Shown: positions 28,913 through 42,524 of the stretch, piece by piece | How positions within the stretch are numbered: position 1 is the first letter of the stretch | How the letters are laid out: every line of letters starts with the position of its first letter | Assembly (NCBI GenBank): GCA_029775855.1 | Contig: JARVJZ010000006.1 | Location: 96,001 to 160,000 of the forward strand | Source of the DNA: Nitrososphaeria archaeon | GTDB lineage: Archaea > Thermoproteota > Nitrososphaeria > Nitrososphaerales > JAAOZN01 | DNA: 64,000 nt | Reading direction: 5' to 3' | Notes under the pieces: model-generated | Told to the model about the DNA's origin: nothing | Databases searched by the model: none | The model's input: only the letters and a program-made list of their open reading frames with translations | Translations under genes and position numbers: made by a program

Positions 28913-31444
28913 ATGGTTTCTAATGATTCTGATGTAAAGATATGCTATGTTAGCGGCGGGTTATGTGGTCATTCACGCTCCGGACCTCCTATGGAGGTTC
29001 ATGTTAAGGATGGTAAGATCATTAGGGTGCTGCCCTTCCGAGTACCGGATGAAGTTAGACTCTATAAGATCAAGACGAGCAAAGGCGAGTTCACAAGACC
29101 CAGGAGAACTGTGCCAGCAGCATTTATGCTCGCTCACAAAAAGAGAGTGGATTCGCCGAATAGATTAAAGTATCCTTTGAAGAGAGTGGATTGGAGCCCT
29201 GAAAATAGGAACCCTCAGAATAGGGGTAAGAGTGGATATGTTAGGATAAGCTGGGATGAAGCTATAGAAATAATCGTTAACGAGATCAAAAGGATAAAGG
29301 AGGTTTACGGCACAACCGAAGCGGTTTTGGTGCAAGCTGATGGGCATGGTCAATCAGGGCTGCTGCACACATTCCATTGTTACGGCCACTATCTATTCGA
29401 CAAGCTAGGAGGCTACACCTCACAAGTGAGGAACCCAGACAGCTGGGAAGGCTACTACTGGGGCGCAAAGCATGTATGGGGCTTCGATGCTCAAGTAGGT
29501 GAGCCGATTCAAGACGCGATCTTTGATGACATCTTAGAGAATTGTGAGATGCTGATATTCAGCGGCTGCGACCCTGAAACTACGCCAGCAGGCTTCGCTG
29601 GGCAGATAGGCACAATAATGTGCAGATGGATAAAACAGGCTGGAATAAAGATCGTTGGTATATCGCCTGACTTAAATTACGCTGAAGCCGTGCACGCTGA
29701 TAAATGGATACCCATTAAACCCAACACAGACGCAGCCTTATACTTGGCGATAGCATACACTTGGATCAAAGAGGACACATACGACAAGAAGTTTGTGCAG
29801 ACACACTGCATCGGCTTCGAAGAATTCAAGAAGTATGTTTTAGGTGAAGAAGATGGTGTTCCAAAGACACCAGAGTGGGCTGAGAGAATCTGTGGAGTGC
29901 CTGTTGAGACGATAAAGGCGCTTGCAAGAGCTTGGGCTAAGAAGAGAACATCCCTAGCAGTATTCTTCGGAGGACCTAAGATAAGGGGGCCTTATTGTAG
30001 TGAGGTTGCGAGGATAGAAGCGATAGTCTTATCTATGCAAGGACTTGGTAAGCCGGGTAGGCAATTCTTTAGATTTTGGTATAGGCTTGGCTTAGGCTGT
30101 AAGAAGCTTTCGCCTATACCTAGATATCCTGAGGTGGATGCTGAGGGGACTCCTCCGAACTTTGCTGAACCTTATGTATATATGCCTCCAACCAGCAGAT
30201 CTTTCGTTATTAAAACGCTGGTGCCAGAAGCTATTCTTAATCCTCCTGTTAGTTGGTATTGTGCCGGCTCTATTATTTGCCCTCGTGAAGATCAGTTCAC
30301 CAAATACACCTTCCCACCTTCAAAAGATCATCCTGGTATACATATGATTTGGAACGAGAATGCTTGCTGGACTGCTTGCTGGAGCAACGGCTATAAGATG
30401 ATTGAGGCTTTAAGGAGCGAGAAGATAGATTTTGTAGTCGGTATACATCCCTGGTTGGAGAATGATCTGCTGTATGCTGACCTTATACTTCCAGCCCAGA
30501 CCATATTTGAGCATGATGACATAGTTCCAGTGAATCATACAGATATTGTAGGTTTGGTTTATCAAGATAAGTGCATAGAGCCTGTTGGTGAATCTAAGAG
30601 CGACTATGAGATACACCGCCTTATAGCTGAGAAACTTGGTATCGGCGATGCGTTTCCACCGCCTGAGGAGGCGTTAAAGAAAGCCTATGAGAAGACATTG
30701 GCAGCTAAGAAGATGAGTTGGGAGGAGTTCAAGAAGAAGAAGGTTGTGATCTACGACTGCCCAACTCCAGAGGAGTGGGAAGAAATTAAGAGGAAGTATA
30801 ATGTTAAGCCTGGGTTGACTTGGTTCTATGAAATGCCTGAGGGTAAGGGTTTGGAGACACCAACTGGGAAACTTGAATTCTACTCTACGGGTCTTGCCGA
30901 GCACTTTCCAGACGATAAAGAAAGACCACCTTTACCACGCTATTTGCCTCATGGTGAAGCACATCAAGAGAGCTTAAGTCATCTTAGGGCTGAGAAGTAC
31001 CCTCTGCTTCTTATGTCTAACCATCCAAGGTGGAGGCTTCACTCTCAAGGCGATGATATATCTTGGACAAGAGAGATACCTACCTGCAAAGTTAAAGGGT
31101 CTGATGGCTACCTCTATGAGCCTCTTTGGATTCACCCTATAGATGCTGAGAAAAGGGGTATAAAGAGCGGAGATGTAGTTATGATATTTAACGAGCGCGG
31201 CGTGGTTCTTGGAGGCGCATATGTGACTGAGAGGATAATGCCTGGCACGGTATACATGGATCACGGTGCTAACCATGATCCAATAGAAGATAAAGTAGAT
31301 AGAGGTGGATGCATAAATCTGATAGCGCCACCGCCTCACGAGAAGAGAATTGCGGGGATGGAGGTTAGGGTTCCAGAGATGTGCGCAAGCGGCTATTTGG
31401 TTGAAGTTCAAAAGTTGGATGAAGATTATCTGGTAGGTGAGTAA
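28913..31444 (+). CDS. Mo-bisPGD oxidoreductase, pyrogallol transhydroxylase alpha-like (DMSO reductase family)
   Basis: SPNRLKYPLKRVDW...RNPQNRGKSGYVRISWDEA, NPDSWEG (Ser ligand), HPRWRLHSQGD; no Tat leader. Confidence 0.85.
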   Translation: MVSNDSDVKICYVSGGLCGHSRSGPPMEVHVKDGKIIRVLPFRVPDEVRLYKIKTSKGEFTRPRRTVPAAFMLAHKKRVDSPNRLKYPLKRVDWSPENRNPQNRGKSGYVRISWDEAIEIIVNEIKRIKEVYGTTEAVLVQADGHGQSGLLHTFHCYGHYLFDKLGGYTSQVRNPDSWEGYYWGAKHVWGFDAQVGEPIQDAIFDDILENCEMLIFSGCDPETTPAGFAGQIGTIMCRWIKQAGIKIVGISPDLNYAEAVHADKWIPIKPNTDAALYLAIAYTWIKEDTYDKKFVQTHCIGFEEFKKYVLGEEDGVPKTPEWAERICGVPVETIKALARAWAKKRTSLAVFFGGPKIRGPYCSEVARIEAIVLSMQGLGKPGRQFFRFWYRLGLGCKKLSPIPRYPEVDAEGTPPNFAEPYVYMPPTSRSFVIKTLVPEAILNPPVSWYCAGSIICPREDQFTKYTFPPSKDHPGIHMIWNENACWTACWSNGYKMIEALRSEKIDFVVGIHPWLENDLLYADLILPAQTIFEHDDIVPVNHTDIVGLVYQDKCIEPVGESKSDYEIHRLIAEKLGIGDAFPPPEEALKKAYEKTLAAKKMSWEEFKKKKVVIYDCPTPEEWEEIKRKYNVKPGLTWFYEMPEGKGLETPTGKLEFYSTGLAEHFPDDKERPPLPRYLPHGEAHQESLSHLRAEKYPLLLMSNHPRWRLHSQGDDISWTREIPTCKVKGSDGYLYEPLWIHPIDAEKRGIKSGDVVMIFNERGVVLGGAYVTERIMPGTVYMDHGANHDPIEDKVDRGGCINLIAPPPHEKRIAGMEVRVPEMCASGYLVEVQKLDEDYLVGE

Positions 31445-32276
31445 GGTGGGTAAGGTTCTCATTATAGATGTTTCTGAATGCGTAGGATGCTACTGCTGCC
31501 AAATAGTATGTAAAGATGAACATGTTGGAAACGATTGGTCACCTTACGCTAAACCTCAACCCGACACTGGTCACTTCTGGCTTAAAGTAGATGAAATGGA
31601 GCGGGGTACCATACCTAAAGTTAAGGTCACATATACCCCGATCTTATGTATGCACTGCGACAACGCACCTTGCATACCAGCGTGTCCAGACAACGCCATA
31701 GTGAAGAGAGAGGACGGTATAGTGCTCATAAAACCGGAGAAGTGTAGTGGCTGCAAACTCTGCTTAGACGCTTGCCCATACGGTGTGATCTACTTTAACA
31801 GCGAATTGAACATCGCTCAAAAATGCACTCTCTGTGCACACCTCCTTGATAAAGGCTGGAGTGAGACAAGGTGTGTAGGCGCTTGCCAACGCGAAGCGCT
31901 TATATTAGGAGAGGAGGGTGACCCTAAGATCAAAAGTTTAATTGAGAAGAGTGAGGTGTTCCACCCAGAGTATGGAACTAAACCTAGGGTCTATTATCTT
32001 AACTTGCCCAAGCCGTTTATAGCTGGGACCATAGTAGATTCATCTATTAGGGAATGTGTTGAGGGAGCTACGGTGGTTGCCTTGGATCTAGTTGAGGGTG
32101 TGAGGCATCAAACGGTTTCAGACGAGTTCGGGGACTTCTGGCTTAGGGATTTAAAGTGGATGCACCGATACCTAATTGAGGTATCTAAGGAAGGCTATGC
32201 TTCAAAGAAGGTTTGCGTAGTCCATACTGCTAAGGATGTGAATCTAGGCACGATAACCCTAACTAAACTCATTTGA
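31437..32276 (+). CDS. Fe-S subunit, transhydroxylase beta-like, with C-terminal beta-sandwich domain
   Basis: CVGCYCCQIVCKDEHVGNDW, CMHCDNAPC, CSGCKLCLDACPYG, KCTLCAH; SDEFGDFW tail. Confidence 0.87.
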   Translation: MSKVGKVLIIDVSECVGCYCCQIVCKDEHVGNDWSPYAKPQPDTGHFWLKVDEMERGTIPKVKVTYTPILCMHCDNAPCIPACPDNAIVKREDGIVLIKPEKCSGCKLCLDACPYGVIYFNSELNIAQKCTLCAHLLDKGWSETRCVGACQREALILGEEGDPKIKSLIEKSEVFHPEYGTKPRVYYLNLPKPFIAGTIVDSSIRECVEGATVVALDLVEGVRHQTVSDEFGDFWLRDLKWMHRYLIEVSKEGYASKKVCVVHTAKDVNLGTITLTKLI

Positions 32277-33733
32277 CCATCTATAGTGGGATAGGTTTGT
32301 CTTTCCTATTTAGGAGAAAGACAGTAAGCACAGCTCTGAAGGTTTATCCGCCTAACTTTCAGGTGGAGTCTGGTAGGAGTGTGACATTAAAGGCTCATCT
32401 GAATCCTGAGAAGGCGCCTGTGGAGCGTGTTGAGTGGCGTTTAGAGGGTTTAGGTATACTTTCTGAATCAAAGGGTCCTTCCACTGTGTATACTGCGCCT
32501 AATGTAGAGCAGGAGACTAAAGTTAGGGTTGTAGCGTCTTTCCCTAAGATGAGTGAATACTTAGAGAGCTCATCTTATGCTGAGGGTGTGATCTTACCTT
32601 CTGGCTTGGCTGCTAAGTCTTCTACATTTCTTACAATATCTCCTATAAGTTTTTCGATAAATGCAGGTGAAAACATTGATTTAACAGCTGTTTTGACAGA
32701 CATGCAAGGAAATCTCTTAGGCAGTAAAGAGATCGTGTGGTTCATACAACCTCAACTAGGCAAATTAACACCAACATCAAACAACACAGCAGTATACACC
32801 GCACCTAAAGTAGATGTTGAAAACCAAATCTTAATCAAAGCAGTCTTTCAAGGCGATGAGCAGCACCTACCTTGTGAAGGTGTCTCAATAGGCTTAGTGA
32901 CGCCACCTACACTTAACGACGAATACATACTCAGCTTTAGTAGGGCAGAGGTATCAAACCTTAAGATCGATGGTGGAGCTGAGGTTGATGGTGTAAGGGT
33001 TGTTAGGATCAGTGTTGACTTGCTTGAAATATCTGATATGAGGATAAGTAGAGTGAATCTATCCTCGCAAAGCGGAGTTCTACAGAAGGTTGAGATATAC
33101 GCAACACGCCTCACAGCGCGCATACCAGATTCAGACAAGGGGTTAGATGTTAAAGGCGAAGATGATATACATCTTAACGCTTCTGAAGCCAGCTTAGATA
33201 ACGGTGTAATCTACTTTGTGAAGATGAGTTGTCTAAGTGGGGAATTAACTCAACCTGAAGTTTTAGGGCGGTATGCTGGTGGAGATGAGCCATACCTACC
33301 TATATTACTTACGACATCAAACATAACTATGGATAGGGGCTTTTCAGTTACAGGACCAGAGACATATGGCATGTTGGAGAATAAAGCTACTAAGATACTC
33401 TGCGGGAGAATCTCTGCATCAAACTTCTTCTTAAAATGCCCTAGCAGATACAGCTTAGATAGAGAGGGAAATAATCACGAGTTTGTTGAAAAGTGGGCTC
33501 TAAACGCTTCATCAGCAGCAATAGAGGATGCTGAGATATATGCAATATACTTCAAGGTAAGAGCCCTATTGGTATGGAGAGTTAAGGCTACTGGAGAAGA
33601 GTATATCCCAAGCATAATACCAGAAGGCCTCCACAGAGGAGAAAAAGCGCCGATAAACGAGGCGGATGTGGACATAATCTACCTCAAAGCCACTAAACTA
33701 AAGGTCAATAACGCATCATTCACTTTAAAGTAG
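32273..33733 (+). CDS. Hypothetical protein with two Ig-like repeats and a repeated beta-rich C-terminal region
   Basis: Repeats ..W...LG.L....T.VYTAP.V (x2); VEIYAT / AEIYAI repeat. Confidence 0.7.
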   Translation: MTIYSGIGLSFLFRRKTVSTALKVYPPNFQVESGRSVTLKAHLNPEKAPVERVEWRLEGLGILSESKGPSTVYTAPNVEQETKVRVVASFPKMSEYLESSSYAEGVILPSGLAAKSSTFLTISPISFSINAGENIDLTAVLTDMQGNLLGSKEIVWFIQPQLGKLTPTSNNTAVYTAPKVDVENQILIKAVFQGDEQHLPCEGVSIGLVTPPTLNDEYILSFSRAEVSNLKIDGGAEVDGVRVVRISVDLLEISDMRISRVNLSSQSGVLQKVEIYATRLTARIPDSDKGLDVKGEDDIHLNASEASLDNGVIYFVKMSCLSGELTQPEVLGRYAGGDEPYLPILLTTSNITMDRGFSVTGPETYGMLENKATKILCGRISASNFFLKCPSRYSLDREGNNHEFVEKWALNASSAAIEDAEIYAIYFKVRALLVWRVKATGEEYIPSIIPEGLHRGEKAPINEADVDIIYLKATKLKVNNASFTLK

Positions 33734-36068
33734 AGCGATTCTTCAACAACCAAAAGACCTTCTCAGGGGTTATAGGAAGACTGGTAACCCTAACCCCTAT
33801 AGCATCCTTAACACCATTACCTATAGCTGGCGCTATAGGCAGAACCCCTAGCTCGCCTACCGAGCGTGAGCCGAAAGGCCCAGGCCCTATGCCGCTCTCT
33901 AGAATTGTAGTTTCTATGTTAGGTGTCTCAGATATAGATGCTATTAGGTAATCCATAAAGGTGCCGTTGAAGATCTGCCCTTCTTCTATAACAAGTTCTT
34001 CAAAGAGAGATGTGCTGAAACCCATCCAAGCACCTCCCTTTAGCTGCCCCTCTACTAAAGCGGGGTTGACCGCTCTACCTACATCGGCTATAACTTTGAT
34101 GTTCAAGACCTTTATTGACCCACTTTCCGGGTCTACTGCTAAGTCTACTGCTGCGCAGATAGGCGTGTATTCTAGTGCTACTCTAGGCTTGGATGCTTGC
34201 CCTGTTTCTGGGTCTATCTCCGCTAAATCTTCGTAGAAGAAGCCTCTGCCTAGCAGTAGGCCTGTTTGCTCTATGTATGCTCCACCCATGGGTCCTGCTG
34301 TGAAGAGGGTTTCGAGGGGTATCTCTTCAGTTGTATTTTCTGACTCTACCTTCAACTTTCCGTTGCTGAATGATATTTTATCTTTTGGTTTAGAGAGGAT
34401 TTTGGAGGCTGCTTCGACTATCTGCCCCTTAAGATCTTTGACTGCTGCCAGCACGGCATTACCTAACTGGACGAGCTGCCTACTTCCGCTTGAGCCTGGT
34501 GATATAGGCGTTAGGAGGGTATCTGACGAGATCACCCTAACTTTGCTGAGTGGTATATTGAACTCTTTAGCAACGATCTGAGCAAGCCCAGTAAATGTCC
34601 CTTGACCTATGTCTGTAGCGCCGATGTAGAGGTCGATGGTTAGATCTTCGTTTAGGCGTATAAGTGCTACGCTTGGATAGGTTATGTCACATTGATGCTT
34701 CGCTATGGCTACACCCCGACCTACAACCCAACCGTCTATGGGGCTCTTTGGTTTTGGGTTTTCATCTAAGAGCTTCTTTAATGTGTTTATGCAAAGCCTC
34801 ATTGTATCGCTGTGTATCTTCTCTCCTATACAGCTCACATCGCTATCCTTTAAGATGTTTTTCAGCCTAAGTTCTAAGGGGTCTATGTTAAGCCTCTGAG
34901 CGATTTCGTTCATCTGAGACTCTATAGCCCAATATATTTGTGTTGAACCGAAGCCTCTGAACGCGCCTCCTTGAACCTGATTTGTGTAGACTCGATAGAT
35001 GTCTGCCTTAAAGTTAGGTATATTGTAGACTGAGCTTATGGCGTAGATTGCGTTTCTTACAACTACATTCCCAGCTACAGAGTATGCTCCGCCGTTATAT
35101 ACTATGCTCATTACTCTACCAATTATCCGCCCATCTTTAGTTACAGCATCACTTAACTTAATCTCTGCCTGGTGGCGTGTAGTTGTATACATTAGGTCTT
35201 CAAGCCTCGACAAAACGAGCTTAACAGGCCTACCCTGAGTCTTTAGGGCTAGGGCTGCTACTATCGGCTCATACACAGCTGCACCTCGATTACCAAAACC
35301 TCCACCAACATGCTTTGGCACTATGACTCTAATCTTCTGCTCCGGAATCTCTAAAGCGTCTGAAATCTCTTTTCTGGTTCTAAATGGTGTTTGCCCTGAG
35401 GTGTAGATTGTAAGGGAACCATCTGGCTCCTGTTTCGCTATAATAGATGTGGGTTCAAGTTGTGCGTGCTGCACCGCTTGCGTTGTATAAGTGTTAGTGA
35501 TGATAAAATCTGCTTGTTTGAATGCTTCTTCTACATCGCCAAACCTTATCTTTTGCAAAGCCGATACATTCGGTTTATTAGGTGTTAAAGCAACCCTATA
35601 CAGCTTTGACTTCAGCCGCTTGTAGCGCGATAGATCCTCATGCACAACTGTAGGAGGCTCTTCAAGTAAGGCCTCTTTGAAGTCAAAGAGAGGTGTAAGA
35701 GGTTCATACTCAACATCGACCAACTCACAAGCTGCAAAAGCTATGTCAAAAGACTCAGCAGCTACAGCTACTACAGGCTCTCCAATATACCTAACCTTAC
35801 CCCTTGCAAGTATAGGTGTGTCTAGTAGCCCTCTACCGTGCAGCCCCTTCGGCACATCTTCTGCAGTGATTACAGCAACTACGCCGCTAAGTGATGTGGC
35901 TCTACTTGTGTCCACCTTTTTTATGAGGGCGTGTGGTAATGGGCTCCTCTTTAAGCACGCATAGAGCATATAAGGTAGGGTGATGTCAGTTGTATACACT
36001 GCTTTACCAGTAACCTTCTCTAATCCATATAGATTGGGTGCGCGACTTAAATTGTTCATCTTAAACAT
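33720..36068 (-). CDS. Xanthine dehydrogenase-family molybdopterin large subunit (stand-alone)
   Basis: EKVTGKAVY..D, VGGGFG, AFRGFG, DIGQG, EGQLKGG, SVGE. Confidence 0.92.
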   Translation of the reverse strand: MFKMNNLSRAPNLYGLEKVTGKAVYTTDITLPYMLYACLKRSPLPHALIKKVDTSRATSLSGVVAVITAEDVPKGLHGRGLLDTPILARGKVRYIGEPVVAVAAESFDIAFAACELVDVEYEPLTPLFDFKEALLEEPPTVVHEDLSRYKRLKSKLYRVALTPNKPNVSALQKIRFGDVEEAFKQADFIITNTYTTQAVQHAQLEPTSIIAKQEPDGSLTIYTSGQTPFRTRKEISDALEIPEQKIRVIVPKHVGGGFGNRGAAVYEPIVAALALKTQGRPVKLVLSRLEDLMYTTTRHQAEIKLSDAVTKDGRIIGRVMSIVYNGGAYSVAGNVVVRNAIYAISSVYNIPNFKADIYRVYTNQVQGGAFRGFGSTQIYWAIESQMNEIAQRLNIDPLELRLKNILKDSDVSCIGEKIHSDTMRLCINTLKKLLDENPKPKSPIDGWVVGRGVAIAKHQCDITYPSVALIRLNEDLTIDLYIGATDIGQGTFTGLAQIVAKEFNIPLSKVRVISSDTLLTPISPGSSGSRQLVQLGNAVLAAVKDLKGQIVEAASKILSKPKDKISFSNGKLKVESENTTEEIPLETLFTAGPMGGAYIEQTGLLLGRGFFYEDLAEIDPETGQASKPRVALEYTPICAAVDLAVDPESGSIKVLNIKVIADVGRAVNPALVEGQLKGGAWMGFSTSLFEELVIEEGQIFNGTFMDYLIASISETPNIETTILESGIGPGPFGSRSVGELGVLPIAPAIGNGVKDAIGVRVTSLPITPEKVFWLLKNRSTLK

Positions 36069-36229
36069 GCTTCACCTATTTTGTGGGTTAACTTTTAATT
36101 ATACTTTAATAATAGCAACTAAATTAATTACTATTATCGTGTAAACGGTAGAAAGCTAGATGTAAAAGAATTATTAGCGCGTTTTAAAAATTGCAATTAA
36201 ATCCTTATATGAGGAATCGCAATAATAGA

Positions 36230-37939
36230 ATGTTAGAGTTGGAGGTTTATAGCCACGACATATTAATTATCGGCGCCGGTCTTGCGGGTCTCAGAGCAGC
36301 AATCGCAGCTGCAGAAGTAAGCAAAAACTTGGACATCGCGGTAATCTCAAAGGTGTATCCAATGAGGTCTCACTCAGTCTGCGCCCAAGGGGGCACAGCA
36401 GCGGTAATGAGAGAGGGCGATAGCCACGATCTACACGCTTATGATACCGTCAAAGGAAGTGACTTCTTAGCAGACCAAGATGTTGTAGAATTCTTTGTAA
36501 AAAGAGCAAGTGTAGAACTTGTGAAGCTGGAGCATTGGGGTATGCCTTGGAGCAGAACAGAAGATGGAAAGATAGCTCAAAGAGCGTTTGGTGGGCATAG
36601 CTTCAATAGAACATGTTATTCAGCAGATCTTGTGGGTTTTCAAGAAATGCACACGCTGTATGGGCGCGCCTTAGCATATGACAACATAGGCTTCTATGAC
36701 GAATGGTTCGTTACATCTCTGATAGCTGAAGAGGGACAAGCAAAGGGTGTAACAGCTATAGAACTCAAAACAGGAAGAATGAGCGCGTTCAGGGCGAAGG
36801 CGATAATAATGGCAACTGGAGGAGCCTGCAGAATATACCGTTTCACAACCTATTCACACACAGCCACAGGCGACGGTATGGCTATAGCCTATAGGGCTGG
36901 TGCACCTCTTGAAGATATGGAGTTCGTTCAATTCCATCCAACAGCGCTTGTGCCAAGCGGTGTATTAATAACTGAAGCAGCCCGTGGAGAAGGCGGCTAC
37001 CTCCTAAACAGCAAAAAAGAGCGTTTTATGGAAAAGTATGCAAAGGAGAAGATGGAACTGGCGCCACGCGACATAGTATCAAGGGCTGAAATGACCGAGA
37101 TAATGGAGGGAAGAGCATACACTGGACCAGATAGACCCTACATAGCCCTTGATCTAACACACTTAGGCGAGGAAAAGATAAACGAACGCCTCCCGTTTAT
37201 ACGCGAAGTAGCGCAGAGGTTAATAGGCGTAGACCCGGTTCATGAGCATATACCAGTAGCACCCGCTGCACACTACTCTATGGGCGGTATATCTGCGAAC
37301 ATAAGGACAGCAACGCCTTTGCCTCATCTATTTGCAGCTGGCGAATGTGCTTGCCTTAGCCTACACGGCGCCAACAGGTTGGGCTCTAACTCTACAGCGG
37401 AATGTCTGGTTTTTGGTGCTGTAGCTGGTGAAGAAGCAGCAAAACTTGCGCTTTCCTCAACGCTCCCAAGTCTACCTAGCGATAAGCTTAGAGAAGAAGA
37501 GAAGCGTGTCTTTGACCAAGTTTTGGGAAATGAAGGCGGTGAGAGGATCTCAGAGATTAGAAGACAAATGATGAATATTATGGATGATAAAGTATGGATC
37601 TTTAGAGACGAGCATGGATTAGCAGAAGCGGTTAAGGCGATAAGAGCCTTAAAGGAGAAGTTTAGAAGGGCTAAAGTTGAAGACACTTCAAGAGTGTTTA
37701 ATTTAGGTTTGGTAAACGCTCTTGAACTGGACTTTATGCTTGATTTAGCCGAGGTTACAGCCTTCTCAGCGTTAAACAGAAGAGAGTCAAGAGGGGCACA
37801 TTCAAGAATAGATTACCCCAAGCGTAATGATACGGATTGGCTTAAACACACCTTAGCCTACCACACACCAGACGGACCGAAATTAGAATATATGCCAGTA
37901 ACCATAACGAAGTGGAAACCTGTCGAAAGAAAGTATTGA
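36230..37939 (+). CDS. sdhA: Succinate dehydrogenase/fumarate reductase flavoprotein (start probably ATG 36230)
   Basis: [16 protein letters not shown] (covalent FAD His), [30 protein letters not shown]. Confidence 0.95.
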
Positions 37940-37953
37940 AGGAGGTTAAGCTT

Positions 37954-39459
37954 TTGGTGGAAGAGAAGATAATCACACTTAATGTGCAGCGATATCAACC
38001 AGAGAAAGGGCAGTTCACGACATCAACATATAGGATTCCTGTGAAAAAGGGAATGACACTACTCGACGCTCTACTATATGTGCGAGACAACATAGATGGG
38101 ACATTAACCATCAGACACTCTTGCAGAATGGGCATCTGCGGAAGCTGCTCAGTAATAGCTAATGGCAAACACCTTCTAGCTTGCTATACACAAGTCCTTG
38201 ACTTAGGTTCAGACACCATAACTGTTACTCCGATGCAGAACCTCCCCATGATAAGAGATCTAGTCCCAGACCTAAAACCATTCTTTGATAAGTATAAACC
38301 GATTCAACCCTACCTCATAAAACCAGATAAAGATATGCTTATGGAAGCAGAGTTCACACAGAAGCCTGAAGAACTCAAAAAGTATTGGAATACAACACTC
38401 TGTATAAAATGCGGACTCTGCTACTCCGCTTGCCCAGTCGTCAAATCTAACCCAGATTTCCCTGGGCCTGCTGCTACCACAACACTATACCGCTTCACAA
38501 TAGATAGTAGGGACAGCGGTGGAGAAGCTAGGCTTCAGCATACAGGTCCTTGGCTATGCTACTATTGTGGGGACTGCTCTATAAGCTGCCCTAAAGGAGT
38601 TGAACCCGCTGAGTCAATTATGTCTATGCGGCGGCATCTAATAACCAACTACGATTGGACGGGGATCTCACGCATGCTCTACAATTCAAAGAAAGCATCG
38701 ATAATATTCACATTAGGTTTAGCACTACTAACACTGCTCTTAGTCTGGTTCCTACACGGACCTATAATTACAGATAGAATTGAACTCACAACATTCGCAC
38801 CAATCGAAATTGTGCACAACGGCGGAATAATATACGGTTTGCTACTTGCTGCTCTACTACTTAGCAACCTCGGTAGAATGTATTGGTTCACTGTGAAGAA
38901 GAGAACTAACGGAAAGCATATACCATTAAGCACCTACTTCAAAGCGTTAAAACATGTGGTCTCAGAGTTTCTAGCACAAGCAGGCTACTCCAGATGCACA
39001 CCAAAACGCGCTTGGATCAACCACTTAATACTCATGTGGGGTTACACAAGCCTATTCATACTATTTGCAATTCTGCTGCCTTACACACTAGTTAATACTA
39101 TACTTCCCTTGAGCAACCCACTGCGTTTAGCAGGCTACTTTGGCTTCACAGCTTTAACATATGCTACCCTCTACGCCATCATAGGAAGAGTTAGAAAGAA
39201 GGAGGAGTTTAGGAAATACTCACACCACACAGATTGGATGTTCCTAATACTACTCTTACTCACATCCATAACAGGTATATTAATTCACATATTCATAGCG
39301 CTCAACTGGCCTCTTCCAACCTACATAATCTTCGCCATACACCTTGCTGTAGTCGTGCCGCTACTTGCTGAAGTGCCCTTCGGCAAATGGACTCACCTCG
39401 CCTACAGACCTTTCGCACTCTACTTTAATAGACTCAAAAGAGAAGCGGGCATCCAATAA
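37954..39459 (+). CDS. sdhB: SdhB/FrdB Fe-S subunit fused to a QmoC/NarI-like membrane domain
   Basis: SCRMGICGSC..LAC, CIKCGLCYSACP, CYYCGDCSISCP, then about 7 hydrophobic helices ending PFGKWTHLAYRP; SD GGAGG before TTG 37954. Confidence 0.85.
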   Translation: MVEEKIITLNVQRYQPEKGQFTTSTYRIPVKKGMTLLDALLYVRDNIDGTLTIRHSCRMGICGSCSVIANGKHLLACYTQVLDLGSDTITVTPMQNLPMIRDLVPDLKPFFDKYKPIQPYLIKPDKDMLMEAEFTQKPEELKKYWNTTLCIKCGLCYSACPVVKSNPDFPGPAATTTLYRFTIDSRDSGGEARLQHTGPWLCYYCGDCSISCPKGVEPAESIMSMRRHLITNYDWTGISRMLYNSKKASIIFTLGLALLTLLLVWFLHGPIITDRIELTTFAPIEIVHNGGIIYGLLLAALLLSNLGRMYWFTVKKRTNGKHIPLSTYFKALKHVVSEFLAQAGYSRCTPKRAWINHLILMWGYTSLFILFAILLPYTLVNTILPLSNPLRLAGYFGFTALTYATLYAIIGRVRKKEEFRKYSHHTDWMFLILLLLTSITGILIHIFIALNWPLPTYIIFAIHLAVVVPLLAEVPFGKWTHLAYRPFALYFNRLKREAGIQ

Positions 39460-39541: not shown

Positions 39542-40291
39542 TTGATTAAACGCATCCACATATTAGATTGCGGCACACTTGAAATAGACATGTCATACTT
39601 TACTTGGAAGGTGAACATAGGCAAACCATACCGCTTTCCAGTTTGGTGCACCTACGTGGAGAGCGACGAAGCTAAGATTATGATAGATACTGGCTACAAC
39701 CTTGAAAACGCCTTACAATACTACAGCTGGGAGAAGCCTCAGCAGAGTGAAGAGCAGAGGCTTGACAAACAACTAGCTCTAATCGGTGTGAAGCCAGAAG
39801 ATATAGATATCGTGGTTATAACACACCTCCACTTCGACCACGCAGGCTACCTCTACCTATTCAAGAACGCTAGAATAATCGTGCAAAAAGAGGAGCTAAG
39901 ACATGCCTATGTGCCTGAGCCGTTTGAAGCGATAGGCTACAGCAGACCAACCTTTGACATACCAGGGTTAAAATGGGAGTGTGTTAGCGGAGACCAAAAG
40001 ATAGTCGATGGGCTTAGAACCGTCTTAGCCCCTGGGCACAGCGCTGGGCATCAGATACCCATTATAGATAGTAAAGAGCTTAACACAATAATAATTGAAA
40101 GCGACGTTATAAGCACACGCGCCAACCTAGAGAAGCACATAGTAGGTGGAATACATCTAGACCCGATGGCTCAATACGAATCTATGCTTAAACTTGAGAG
40201 AATCGCCAAAGAGACTGGGGGGAAGATATTTCTAGCGCATGACACTGAATTCTATAACACGCTTAAACGTGGTAAAGAGTATTATACTTAA
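39542..40291 (+). CDS. Metallo-beta-lactamase-fold lactonase, 4-pyridoxolactonase-like
   Basis: THLHFDH, PGHSAGH; RFPV, IDTGY, EKPQQ, PEPFEAIGYS and HLDP..SM resemble Mesorhizobium 4-pyridoxolactonase as recalled. Confidence 0.75.
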   Translation: MIKRIHILDCGTLEIDMSYFTWKVNIGKPYRFPVWCTYVESDEAKIMIDTGYNLENALQYYSWEKPQQSEEQRLDKQLALIGVKPEDIDIVVITHLHFDHAGYLYLFKNARIIVQKEELRHAYVPEPFEAIGYSRPTFDIPGLKWECVSGDQKIVDGLRTVLAPGHSAGHQIPIIDSKELNTIIIESDVISTRANLEKHIVGGIHLDPMAQYESMLKLERIAKETGGKIFLAHDTEFYNTLKRGKEYYT

Positions 40292-40338: not shown

Positions 40339-40587
40339 ATGTTGGGGTTGGGAATATTTACAGAGGGAGAAAACGAGGTTATTGTAGATGCTTATGACGT
40401 CTTTGGTGTGATAGAGGCTCTAAAGAACAAATATCCACTCTTTAAAGAGAAGTTATGTGACCCAAGAACTGGTAGACTATATCCTGGGTTCGACATATTC
40501 GTGAATGAGCATCCTACATTGGATGAGAAGCATGTGTTAAAGGACGGGGACGTTGTAACTATAGTTCCGATCTTTGCTGGTGGATAA
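40339..40587 (+). CDS. MoaD/SAMP ubiquitin-like sulfur carrier
   Basis: IFVNE...LKDGDVVTIVPIFAGG C-terminal diglycine; next to AOR. Confidence 0.88.
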   Translation: MLGLGIFTEGENEVIVDAYDVFGVIEALKNKYPLFKEKLCDPRTGRLYPGFDIFVNEHPTLDEKHVLKDGDVVTIVPIFAGG

Positions 40588-40649
40588 TAGAAAAGAGCTT
40601 ATAATGGGGAATTAAAATCTAATATAGATGCAGATAGGTTGAGTCTAAA

Positions 40650-42524
40650 TTGAGCGATTTTAAATACAAAGGCTACTGCTCTAAACTGCTGAGAGTAAAT
40701 CTAACTTCACAAACCGCTTCTGAAGAACCTTTGAATGAATCTGATGTAGAAAGATTTATCGGTGGTAGAGGACTTGGCGCGAAGATACTTTTTGACGAAG
40801 TCAAAGAAGGCGTTGAACCCCTAAGCCCAGAAAACAAGCTCATAATAACCACTGGACCATTAACGGGAACGAGGGTACCTACTAGTACAAACCGCTTTGT
40901 AATTACAACAAAATCTCCTCTAACAGGTATCTACGGCTTTTCAGTTTCAGGAGGAGCATTTGGCTTAGAGTTAAAGAAGGCTGGATACGATGGATTAGTG
41001 ATAGAAGGCAAAGCGAATAAACCAACATACTTACAGATAGAAGATGGAGAACTACATTTTAGAGACGCAGGCTGGCTCTGGGGCATACCAGTATTCGAAG
41101 CAACCAGGCTTCTGAGAGAAACCTTAGGTTATGACTACAGAACAATAATGATAGGCCCTTCTGGGGAGAAGTTGGTTAAGATCGCAGGCATAATTTCAGA
41201 CGACCGAAGAGCATCAGCAAGGTGTGGTGTTGGAGCGGTAATGGGCTCAAAGCTACTAAAGGCAGTGGCGGTCAAAGGCTCAAAAGAATACACATTTGCA
41301 GACCCCGCTAAATTCGACGAAGCGTTAAAAGAAGCATTCAAGAACATTGGGATACAACCCGGCCCATGGAAGGAGTTCAGACAGACAGGCACCCAATCTG
41401 GGCCGATAAAGAACAACGCTTGGGGTATCTTACCTACAGCTAACTGGCGTGAATCTGTATTCGATAAAGCTGCTGAAATAAGCTACCCTCTGTTAAGAGA
41501 GAGGTTTGTCGTCAAAGATACTGGCTGTAACCAGTGCCCGATAAGATGCACAAAACTAACCTTGGTTAAGGATGGGCCTTATGCTGGTGCTGCAACTGAT
41601 GGGCCTGAGTATGAGACGATTTACGCGTTTGGCAGCGCTTGCAAGATAGGTGACCCGAGACCTATTATAGCGGCTGATATGCTCTGTGACGATCTAGGGC
41701 TTGATACCATGTCTACTGGGCTTACTATAGCTTGGGCTATGGAGGCTCTTGAGAAGAATGCTATCTCAAAGAGCGAGTTGGATGGGTTAAATTTGAGATT
41801 TGGGAGCGACGAAGGACTGCTGAACGCTATCAAGAAGATGGCTTATAGGGATGGAGCATTAGGCAAACTACTTTCAGATGGCGTAAGAGAGGCTGCTAGA
41901 AAGGTTGGGAAAGGCTCCGAAAGCTATGCTATGCACGTTAAGGGTCTTGAGATAGGAGGTTATGACCCAAGAGGCTCAAAGGGGCAGGGATTAGTGTTGG
42001 CTGCTGGTTCAAGAGGCGGATGCCATCACGCATATGGTGTGGCTTCCTTTGTTGAAATACCTCAAGGTACTGCTACAAGCGCTAAAGGAAAGGGGTTGCT
42101 CGTTAAGGGAACATTAAGGGTTAGGGTTATGATAGATTCATCCCCTTTATGCGCCTTCGCAGCATCCAGGGTGCCACCGCCGCTGCTGGCTAGATTAATT
42201 TCAGCTGCCACTGGAATGGAGATGCAGCTCTCTGATTTGGAGAGAGCTGCTGATAGAATAGCGACACTCGAAAGAGCATATAACGCTAGAGAAGGGGTAA
42301 GAAGGGAGCATGACACTCTGCCGGATAGGTTGCTAAAGGAAGCTGTGCCAGATGGGCCGAACAAAGGTGCGGTTCTTACACCTGAAGAACTTGAACTTAT
42401 GAAGACAGAGCTCTATGAAGCCATGGGTTGGGATACTTCTACTGGCATACCTAAGAGGAGCACGCTGGAGGCTTTAGGGTTGGCTGATGTAGCTTCAGAT
42501 CTAGCTAGGGCTGGATGTCTGTAG
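40650..42524 (+). CDS. aor: Tungsten aldehyde:ferredoxin oxidoreductase family (AOR/WOR)
   Basis: IGGRGLG, KSPLTG, GAVMGSKLLKA, CNQCPIRC, GPEYET, DDLGLDT, RGGCH. Confidence 0.93.
   Translation: MSDFKYKGYCSKLLRVNLTSQTASEEPLNESDVERFIGGRGLGAKILFDEVKEGVEPLSPENKLIITTGPLTGTRVPTSTNRFVITTKSPLTGIYGFSVSGGAFGLELKKAGYDGLVIEGKANKPTYLQIEDGELHFRDAGWLWGIPVFEATRLLRETLGYDYRTIMIGPSGEKLVKIAGIISDDRRASARCGVGAVMGSKLLKAVAVKGSKEYTFADPAKFDEALKEAFKNIGIQPGPWKEFRQTGTQSGPIKNNAWGILPTANWRESVFDKAAEISYPLLRERFVVKDTGCNQCPIRCTKLTLVKDGPYAGAATDGPEYETIYAFGSACKIGDPRPIIAADMLCDDLGLDTMSTGLTIAWAMEALEKNAISKSELDGLNLRFGSDEGLLNAIKKMAYRDGALGKLLSDGVREAARKVGKGSESYAMHVKGLEIGGYDPRGSKGQGLVLAAGSRGGCHHAYGVASFVEIPQGTATSAKGKGLLVKGTLRVRVMIDSSPLCAFAASRVPPPLLARLISAATGMEMQLSDLERAADRIATLERAYNAREGVRREHDTLPDRLLKEAVPDGPNKGAVLTPEELELMKTELYEAMGWDTSTGIPKRSTLEALGLADVASDLARAGCL

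Follow-up and report, generated by a model that had tools for sequence, protein, structure and literature searches.

We analysed a 64,000-nucleotide (nt) stretch of DNA from a Nitrososphaeria archaeon (the window, G000:C6:96001-160000; the genome, G000, comprises 1.51 Mb on 6 contigs and is 98.4% complete), centring on sdhA and the gene that follows it. That gene encodes a chimera of the iron–sulfur (Fe-S) protein SdhB and a QmoC-like membrane protein, spliced within a two-cluster ferredoxin domain; the architecture is restricted to one clade and the gene is under purifying selection. We consider it likely that the locus specifies a two-polypeptide complex II, di-heme and quinone-linked, in which SdhA is partnered by the SdhB-QmoC chimera as iron–sulfur subunit and anchor in one. 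The enzyme is probably a two-subunit, di-heme succinate:quinone oxidoreductase (SQR) or fumarate reductase. The features of the locus are listed below, with residues numbered on the longest open reading frame (ORF) of 515 amino acids; G002 is the genome of a sister species.

36191..37939, + strand: sdhA/frdA, flavoprotein subunit, 582 amino acids (ORF list; Pfam, NCBIfam, tblastn)
37912..39459, + strand: chimeric SdhB-QmoC gene, longest ORF 515 amino acids (ORF list, Pfam, NCBIfam; AlphaFold2 (AF2) pLDDT 95.7, pTM 0.91)
37940..37946, + strand: GGAGGT, Shine-Dalgarno-like, immediately 3' of the sdhA stop (sequence inspection)
37975..38286, + strand: [2Fe-2S] domain of SdhB, residues 22-125, with Cys 71, 76, 79 and 91 (Fer2_3, E 3e-29)
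38401..38436, + strand: first CxxCxxCxxxCP motif, C164-P175, SdhB-derived (70% identity to G002 SdhB over 161-180)
38527..38547, + strand: recombination junction within the 2x[4Fe-4S] ferredoxin domain, at residues ~206-212 (identity crossover)
38557..38592, + strand: second CxxCxxCxxxCP motif, C216-P227, QmoC/HdrC-derived (alignments)
38686..39456, + strand: HdrE/NarI-like membrane domain, residues 259-515, six transmembrane (TM) helices and a C-terminal helix (qmoC model, alignment A1, DSSP, hydropathy, VIA-align)

A chimera spliced within a two-cluster ferredoxin domain

SdhA matches Pfam FAD_binding_2 (2e-108) and Succ_DH_flav_C (1e-44), scores above the cut-off of NCBIfam NF004724 (888 bits, cut-off 826) and is the only SdhA homologue that tblastn found in G000. 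An earlier note on this DNA had described sdhA as followed by a single ORF of ~500 amino acids, with neither sdhC/sdhD nor a CCG-domain gene adjacent. The ORF list agrees with that description, as do Pfam searches of the neighbouring ORFs, in which nothing sdhC/sdhD-like or CCG-like adjoins the fusion gene. In-frame TTG 37954 and GTG 37957 stand 7-10 nt past the GGAGGT sequence and database gene calls give the protein 500-501 amino acids, so translation probably starts at one of these two codons and yields a protein 14-15 residues shorter than the longest ORF. The fusion gene is translationally coupled to sdhA.

The N-terminus is SdhB, as the earlier note proposed: besides the Fer2_3 match, two NCBIfam SdhB models score above their cut-offs on residues 16-245, TIGR00384 (229.7 bits versus 88) and NF004616 (244.6 bits versus 228). 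Pfam Fer4_8 marks residues 163-230 as a di-cluster domain, and Sdh_cyt, Fumarate_red_C/D and CCG have no Pfam match in the fusion protein. An AF2 model built from a 92-row alignment folds as a single compact body, whose SdhB half superposes on FrdB 1kf6_B (Z 23.2, rmsd 2.2, 234 residues aligned; Foldseek E 1e-16). From the type F enzyme, Mycobacterium Sdh1, only the SdhB chain (7d6v_B / 7d6x_B) surfaced in the fold searches, none of which was aimed at the Sdh1 anchor.

To map the crossover, we aligned the fusion to G002 SdhB and to five stand-alone QmoC-like proteins. Residues 21-140, where the QmoC-like proteins were not compared, are 79% identical to G002 SdhB. Identity to G002 SdhB then stands at 70% versus 30-40% to the five QmoC-like proteins over residues 161-180, and at 56% versus 18-38% over residues 181-205, before the order inverts over residues 213-245 (33% versus 58-73%). 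Across residues 301-515 the QmoC-like proteins are 57-65% identical, and identity to G002 SdhB is meaningless (59 of 215 residues aligned). The MRRxxxxxYDWTG stretch after the second Cys motif is QmoC-derived too, and a profile of the QmoC-like family matches the HdrC chain 7bkb_C (E 8.5e-20), which identifies the Fe-S domain of that family as HdrC-like. A join at a shared ferredoxin motif near 38520 had been suggested, and the crossover at nt 38527-38547 lies close to it. In SdhB and in 2x[4Fe-4S] ferredoxins, each motif lends its last Cys to the cluster formed by the other, so each predicted [4Fe-4S] cluster would be held by residues of both parents.

Both CxxCxxCxxxCP motifs have four Cys (C164/167/170/174 and C216/219/222/226) that are conserved in 7 of 7 fusion sequences, as are all 12 cluster Cys. 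The four Cys of the last motif had been taken as unusual for SdhB. They are indeed present in every fusion, but the type-E-like SdhB of the sister species also has a four-Cys third motif, so this trait is not peculiar to the fusion. A [4Fe-4S] cluster instead of [3Fe-4S] is already the rule in type E enzymes, and predicting the same replacement here from the motif is reasonable.

Profile searches place the C-terminal half with QmoC, HdrE and NarI and not with SdhC/D, in line with the QmoC/NarI-type anchor suggested earlier. The NCBIfam qmoC model NF038018 aligns to residues 164-505 over profile positions 20-360 of 360 (E 1.8e-38, 133 bits), the TcuB model also matches residues 215-504, and the fusion is 52-59% identical to stand-alone QmoC-like proteins. 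An ordinary SdhC/D as the C-terminal half was ruled out, with Sdh_cyt and Fumarate_red_C absent from the matches of both the protein and genome G000. About seven hydrophobic helices had been proposed; the AF2 model gives six instead (260-281, 298-327, 365-387, 403-428, 439-463 and 467-490 by DSSP), followed by a final helix at 492-511. A simple hydropathy scan picks up five of these TM segments in G000-type sequences; in other sequences it detects the sixth.

Four His residues, H282, H371, H477 and H495, are invariant across alignment A1 (15 rows: the C-terminal part of the fusion and 14 stand-alone QmoC-like proteins) and are kept in all seven fusions, as are H302, H438, H439 and H459. In the His pattern that had prompted the comparison with QmoC, the 'LIHIF' His, H459, is conserved only within the fusion clade. 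If the Fe-S domain is cytoplasmic and the domain has six TM helices, H371 and H495 would sit close to the cytoplasmic side, with H282 and H477 towards the outer face. H477 and H495 are 18 residues apart, and H187 and H205 of NarI are also 18 apart. According to passages of a preprint on the NarI-family protein SaEMO, its distal and proximal heme ligands, H233 and H251, have an 18-residue spacing (bioRxiv 10.64898/2026.08.18.745454).

Structural comparison by VIA-align matched the TM half to Mycobacterium smegmatis EtfD 9ojn_A (Z 8.9, rmsd 4.6, 205 residues aligned, model residues 283-507), CybB 5oc0 (Z 8.3) and NarI 1q16_C (Z 8.0, rmsd 5.9, 172 aligned), scores that fall in the range common for helical bundles (Z below about 13). 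These fold matches support but do not prove a NarI/EtfD link, for which the sequence-level qmoC match is the stronger evidence. Sequence searches of the PDB returned no solved relative of the TM half and did not retrieve NarI: with the single fusion protein, the matches were SdhB/FrdB, other Fe-S or [2Fe-2S] chains and HdrC only, and the QmoC-like profile retrieved HdrC, other Fe-S chains and one marginal match on TM-domain positions, the PmoA chain 3chx_B (E 0.33).

Proposed electron flow, heme and quinone

The chimera arose once, when an sdhB recombined with a qmoC-type gene in the two-cluster ferredoxin domain that the two have in common. Its SdhB-derived portion, with the [2Fe-2S] domain and the first Cys motif, would keep the SdhA-facing surface, and the QmoC-derived part, from the second Cys motif onward, would keep its native contact with the HdrE/NarI-like six-helix domain. 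Electrons may pass from FAD through [2Fe-2S] and two [4Fe-4S] clusters to a proximal heme b (H371/H495), from there to a second, distal heme b ligated by H477 and probably H282, and on to a quinone of the menaquinone type near the outer face. Quinol is presumed to bind near that face in QmoC and NarI-type proteins (PMC3333476). The QmoC-type anchor would have displaced heme-free CCG (type E-like) anchoring, which the sister species retains. If the quinone is of low potential, the membrane potential would be required for succinate to be oxidised, in a reverse redox loop like that of the type B SQR of Bacillus; quinol-driven fumarate reduction would run downhill. A reverse redox loop is discussed for EMO in passages of the preprint (bioRxiv 10.64898/2026.08.18.745454). 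Which way the enzyme works cannot be told from sequence.

G000 encodes one real SdhB and has no alternative complex II anchor: Sdh_cyt (PF01127) and Fumarate_red_C (PF02300) were not found (PF02313 and PF05328 were not searched there), nor was a close SdhE homologue (SdhF was not searched for), which, for types A-E, bears out the suggestion that the enzyme stands outside the standard A-F types. Six CCG proteins are encoded elsewhere in G000, the best of them 43% identical to G002 SdhE and lying within an Hdr-like cluster. A heme-copper oxidase was not found in G000; cytochrome bd subunit I is encoded (192.6 bits), so a succinate-to-O2 chain is possible. Other quinone-dependent machinery in the genome includes a Rieske protein adjoining cytochrome b, beside a molybdenum (Mo) oxidoreductase, its 4Fe-4S subunit and a second NarI-like protein; NuoH (323 bits); and a MenA-like prenyltransferase. 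Besides an intact NuoH copy at C3:164506-165396, a second NuoH-like region near a contig end (G000:C1:363087-363988) is broken into three pieces by stops (TGA, TAG, TAA).

Several observations weigh against a di-heme, quinone-linked enzyme. The qmoC score of 133 bits falls short of the curated cut-off of 300, and among the profiles that the earlier note had wanted scanned, Fer2_3, Fer4 and qmoC match, whereas Pfam NarI (PF02665) reaches only E 0.29 and 11.2 bits, below its gathering cut-off of 22.9. The fold matches of the TM half, at Z 8-9, are of the kind that helical bundles commonly give, and AF2 did poorly on residues 199-515 modelled alone from 15 sequences (pLDDT 64.5), a model that was not used. 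The quinone is unproven, because MqnA and MqnD were not found in G000 and the MenA-like prenyltransferase lies below all curated cut-offs (117 bits versus 277; TIGR00751 70.5 versus 102). Since hemB was found in none of the four genomes of the genus (38 of 61 genomes overall) and hemC was not found in G000, heme would have to be scavenged unless the TM domain is heme-free. Finally, transcription rests on two contigs of one RNA library (X8, at 37406-37610 and 37962-38455; 10 of 30 bins covered), neither of which spans the junction; these are a weak hint of transcription.

The heme question gives rise to the best-surviving alternative, in which the TM domain is a mere tether or has lost its heme, and the last Fe-S cluster reduces quinone directly, as in heme-free type D, or passes electrons to another acceptor. 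We judge this unlikely. It accommodates the failure to find hemB and hemC in a 98.4%-complete genome, and hemB in any of the four genus genomes; among NarI-family domains, some of which lack a heme, MsEMO is also described as having no distal heme despite a conserved His, in passages of the preprint (bioRxiv 10.64898/2026.08.18.745454). Against it stand the four family-invariant His in 7 of 7 fusions and a TM domain with a dN/dS of 0.099. The same genome, moreover, encodes at least four heme-dependent proteins besides the fusion anchor, namely cytochrome bd, cytochrome b, heme o synthase (279.8 bits, above the cut-off of 246) and the second NarI-like protein, so the cell must get heme somehow. 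Taken with the missing genes, this points either to a heme auxotroph that scavenges or to a pathway not recognised as such, and the absence of hemB and hemC weakens, but does not overturn, the case for heme binding. The regions concerned, besides the genome as a whole, are L113 (G000:C1:298000-312000), C1:268337-270872 and L114.

Far less probable still is an arrangement in which the QmoC-derived part continues to dock HdrA-like (QmoA/B-type) flavoproteins and links succinate/fumarate to a bifurcating Hdr/Qmo-type module. The partners of the donor family are HdrA-like and G000 has two HdrA-like genes (C1:332422-334374 and C3:149013-150896). Both, however, lie on other contigs, inside their own HdrC/HdrB/MvhD-like clusters; the N-terminal half of the QmoC Fe-S domain has been replaced by SdhB, and the fusion gene is coupled to sdhA in translation.

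Authenticity, distribution and descent

Full-length, intact fusion ORFs occur in G000 and in a second genome, G001; the two are 89% identical, with sdhA upstream and a metallo-beta-lactamase (MBL)-fold gene downstream in both. In a third genome, G003, the gene is split across two contig ends, and the first piece (residues 1-314) itself spans the junction; the aligned part of the G003 match contains in-frame stops. A collection of 5.8 billion proteins holds six 90%-identity clusters of the fusion (496-501 amino acids, 73-100% identity) from several sources. In addition, contigs from two hot-spring metagenome runs, which belong to a different study from the likely source of the window, bridge the junction: one of 2169 nt covers 38160-39459 with 1 difference (X2), and one of 1100 nt covers 37890-38989 with 4 differences (X6).

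Comparison of one genome pair, G000 and G001, gave dN/dS values of 0.077 for the SdhB part, 0.008 for the Fe-S segment and linker, 0.099 for the TM domain and 0.059 for sdhA. The fusion is thus under purifying selection. Misassembly, a risk that the earlier note had attached to the junction, was rejected on the independent genomes, the bridging contigs and dN/dS. An assembly chimera, pseudogene or gene-calling artefact, which a metagenome-derived window and the split G003 gene might bring to mind, has a negligible chance of being correct given the intact ORFs at 89% identity, the six clusters from several sources, the X2 and X6 contigs with 1 and 4 differences, a dN/dS of about 0.08 and a G003 piece that crosses the junction.

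Fusion carriers are hot-spring archaea with a narrow distribution. A HMMER pass over 1.84 billion cluster representatives (50%-identity clusters) gave 5918 matches at E <= 1e-3. Among the best 150 of these, only P0002 (84% identical) spans query residues 21-514, and each of the others covers one half alone, SdhB or QmoC; the survey that had been called for therefore turned up no second cluster with this architecture among those 150. An independent SdhB + QmoC fusion elsewhere should have been listed, because its expected score would be near the sum of both halves. Within 61 related genomes, the fused form occurs in 3 of the 4 from genus g1 and in 0 of the 57 from other families. Carriers bear the source names of Nitrososphaerales or Thaumarchaeota archaea, and automatic annotation names the protein 'QmoC' or 'SdhB'.

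The fourth g1 genome, G002, has a type-E-like operon of sdhA, sdhB (320 amino acids) and a CCG protein (291 amino acids), with an SdhA 84% identical to that of G000; the anchor was therefore swapped recently. A midpoint-rooted tree of the SdhB part, for which 21 of 22 rows were kept, groups all fusions in a single clade (97/93) that is sister to G002-type SdhB (joint clade 100/99), and SdhB-CCG proteins of 520-534 amino acids fall outside both. This topology indicates that the fusion arose once, from a CCG-linked ancestor.

The closest stand-alone relative (L025, 59% identical) lies in an operon of FlpD, two HdrA-like proteins, a 96-amino-acid protein and the QmoC-like protein, and the donor family is therefore a true Qmo-type complex. 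We rejected the idea that stand-alone QmoC-like proteins serve as SDH anchors elsewhere, as sdhA was nearby in 0 of 80 fetched loci (flanks of up to 8 kb on each side, some shorter); one of the 80 has a weak SdhB-like match of 25% identity. For the same reason, the fusion was not a merger of adjacent genes.

Other SdhB fusions appeared among the matches: SdhB-FrdC (P0207, 384 amino acids), SdhB-molybdopterin oxidoreductase (P0223, 929 amino acids) and SdhB-cytochrome c (P0257, 499 amino acids); SdhB is therefore a promiscuous module. Two proteins of 334 and 337 amino acids (P0152 and P0173) are SdhB with two N-terminal hydrophobic segments.

Neighbouring genes and relation to known complexes

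The conserved 3' neighbour of the fusion gene is not claimed as part of the enzyme:

39542..40291, + strand: metallo-beta-lactamase-fold gene (Lactamase_B, 5e-23)

A database protein of 727 amino acids (P0286) carries SdhB-QmoC and an MBL-fold domain in frame, either as a triple fusion or because the gene call read through. Upstream, 28913-33733 holds a molybdopterin oxidoreductase (843 amino acids), then a 4Fe-4S subunit with a CarboxypepD_reg-like domain (279 amino acids), then a 486-amino-acid protein that has zero Pfam matches; a membrane subunit is not adjacent to this group. A xanthine dehydrogenase/aldehyde oxidase-type Mo subunit at 33720-36068 (- strand) diverges from sdhA, and 40339-42524 (+ strand) holds an 82-amino-acid ORF with GG at its end, then an aldehyde:ferredoxin oxidoreductase. 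An Rfam scan of the window gave 0 matches.

Complex II is classified by its membrane anchor into types A-F, and Karavaeva & Sousa reportedly described, in 2023, an evolution in which a soluble SdhAB core gained anchors several times independently. A literature search found no description of an SdhB-QmoC/NarI fusion or of this kind of complex II anchor, although supplementary tables were not covered and an earlier listing is possible. The main-text passages on succinate dehydrogenase in a survey of archaeal fusions mention only SdhA fissions (PMC11237513), and passages of the preprint state that the SDH of archaea lacks a heme b TM domain (bioRxiv 10.64898/2026.08.18.745454).

The nearest kin of the SdhA and SdhB parts are type E (SdhA, SdhB, the CCG-domain protein SdhE and SdhF, as in Sulfolobus/Acidianus and the Campylobacter MFR) and TfrB-like SdhB-CCG proteins. 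Type E and the SdhB-CCG proteins (520-534 amino acids, the next outgroups) share the four-Cys second motif with the fusion. Unlike type E, the fusion has no CCG domain in or beside its gene, and a polytopic domain of the cytochrome b type stands where SdhB would have its C-terminus. The type B enzymes, Bacillus subtilis SQR and Wolinella succinogenes quinol:fumarate reductase, have one anchor polypeptide with two hemes b and are menaquinone-linked. The working principle proposed here would be alike, with one anchor whose two stacked hemes pass electrons through the membrane to or from menaquinone, but the anchor fold is unrelated, Sdh_cyt is unmatched in protein and genome, and the anchor is covalently joined to SdhB.

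With QmoC, the fusion shares the invariant His and the second Cys motif. It differs in that its first Fe-S half is SdhB-derived, qmoA and qmoB are not adjacent, and its neighbours are sdhA and the MBL-fold gene. QmoC itself combines an HdrC-like Fe-S domain with an HdrE-like cytochrome b whose two hemes b accept electrons from quinols, according to parts of PMC3333476. EtfD/EMO and HdrDE, in which a NarI-family heme-b domain is joined to Fe-S/CCG domains, resemble the fusion in using this kind of TM module to link Fe-S clusters on the cytoplasmic side with (methyl)menaquinone or methanophenazine. Among solved structures, the TM half matches EtfD 9ojn_A best, with the 18-residue C-terminal His spacing common to EMO and the fusion; at the sequence level, the match between the fusion and 9ojn_A is limited to the Fe-S part. 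Passages of the preprint place the TM domain of EMO at the N-terminus, an order reversed relative to the fusion (bioRxiv 10.64898/2026.08.18.745454). The catalytic partners of EtfD/EMO and HdrDE, ETF or heterodisulfide, differ as well.

The enzyme, then, lacks the anchor feature that defines each of types A-E, scores below the QmoC cut-off and departs from the Qmo operon. Whether it constitutes a seventh structural class of complex II is in our view evenly balanced: such a class would have SdhB linked covalently, by way of a chimeric Fe-S domain, to a di-heme cytochrome b of the NarI/HdrE type, permit transmembrane electron transfer, and have arisen in one archaeal genus through homologous-fold recombination in which a heme-free CCG anchor was displaced. 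If so, it could support the oxidation of succinate with low-potential menaquinone at the expense of the proton-motive force, or energy-conserving fumarate respiration, and would offer a datable natural case of module swapping in a respiratory enzyme.

The locus raises the question of whether succinate:menaquinone chemistry is within reach of a di-heme module of the NarI type, and a second one, posed by a genome that has several heme-dependent proteins yet apparently does not make heme. The join through a shared ferredoxin fold provides a test of how freely respiratory modules recombine. Among anchor attachments, this one is young and traceable, with sister species that differ in anchor while their SdhA proteins are 84% identical. 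In its ancestry, the enzyme is an SdhAB of the type E lineage to which a QmoC module has been joined.

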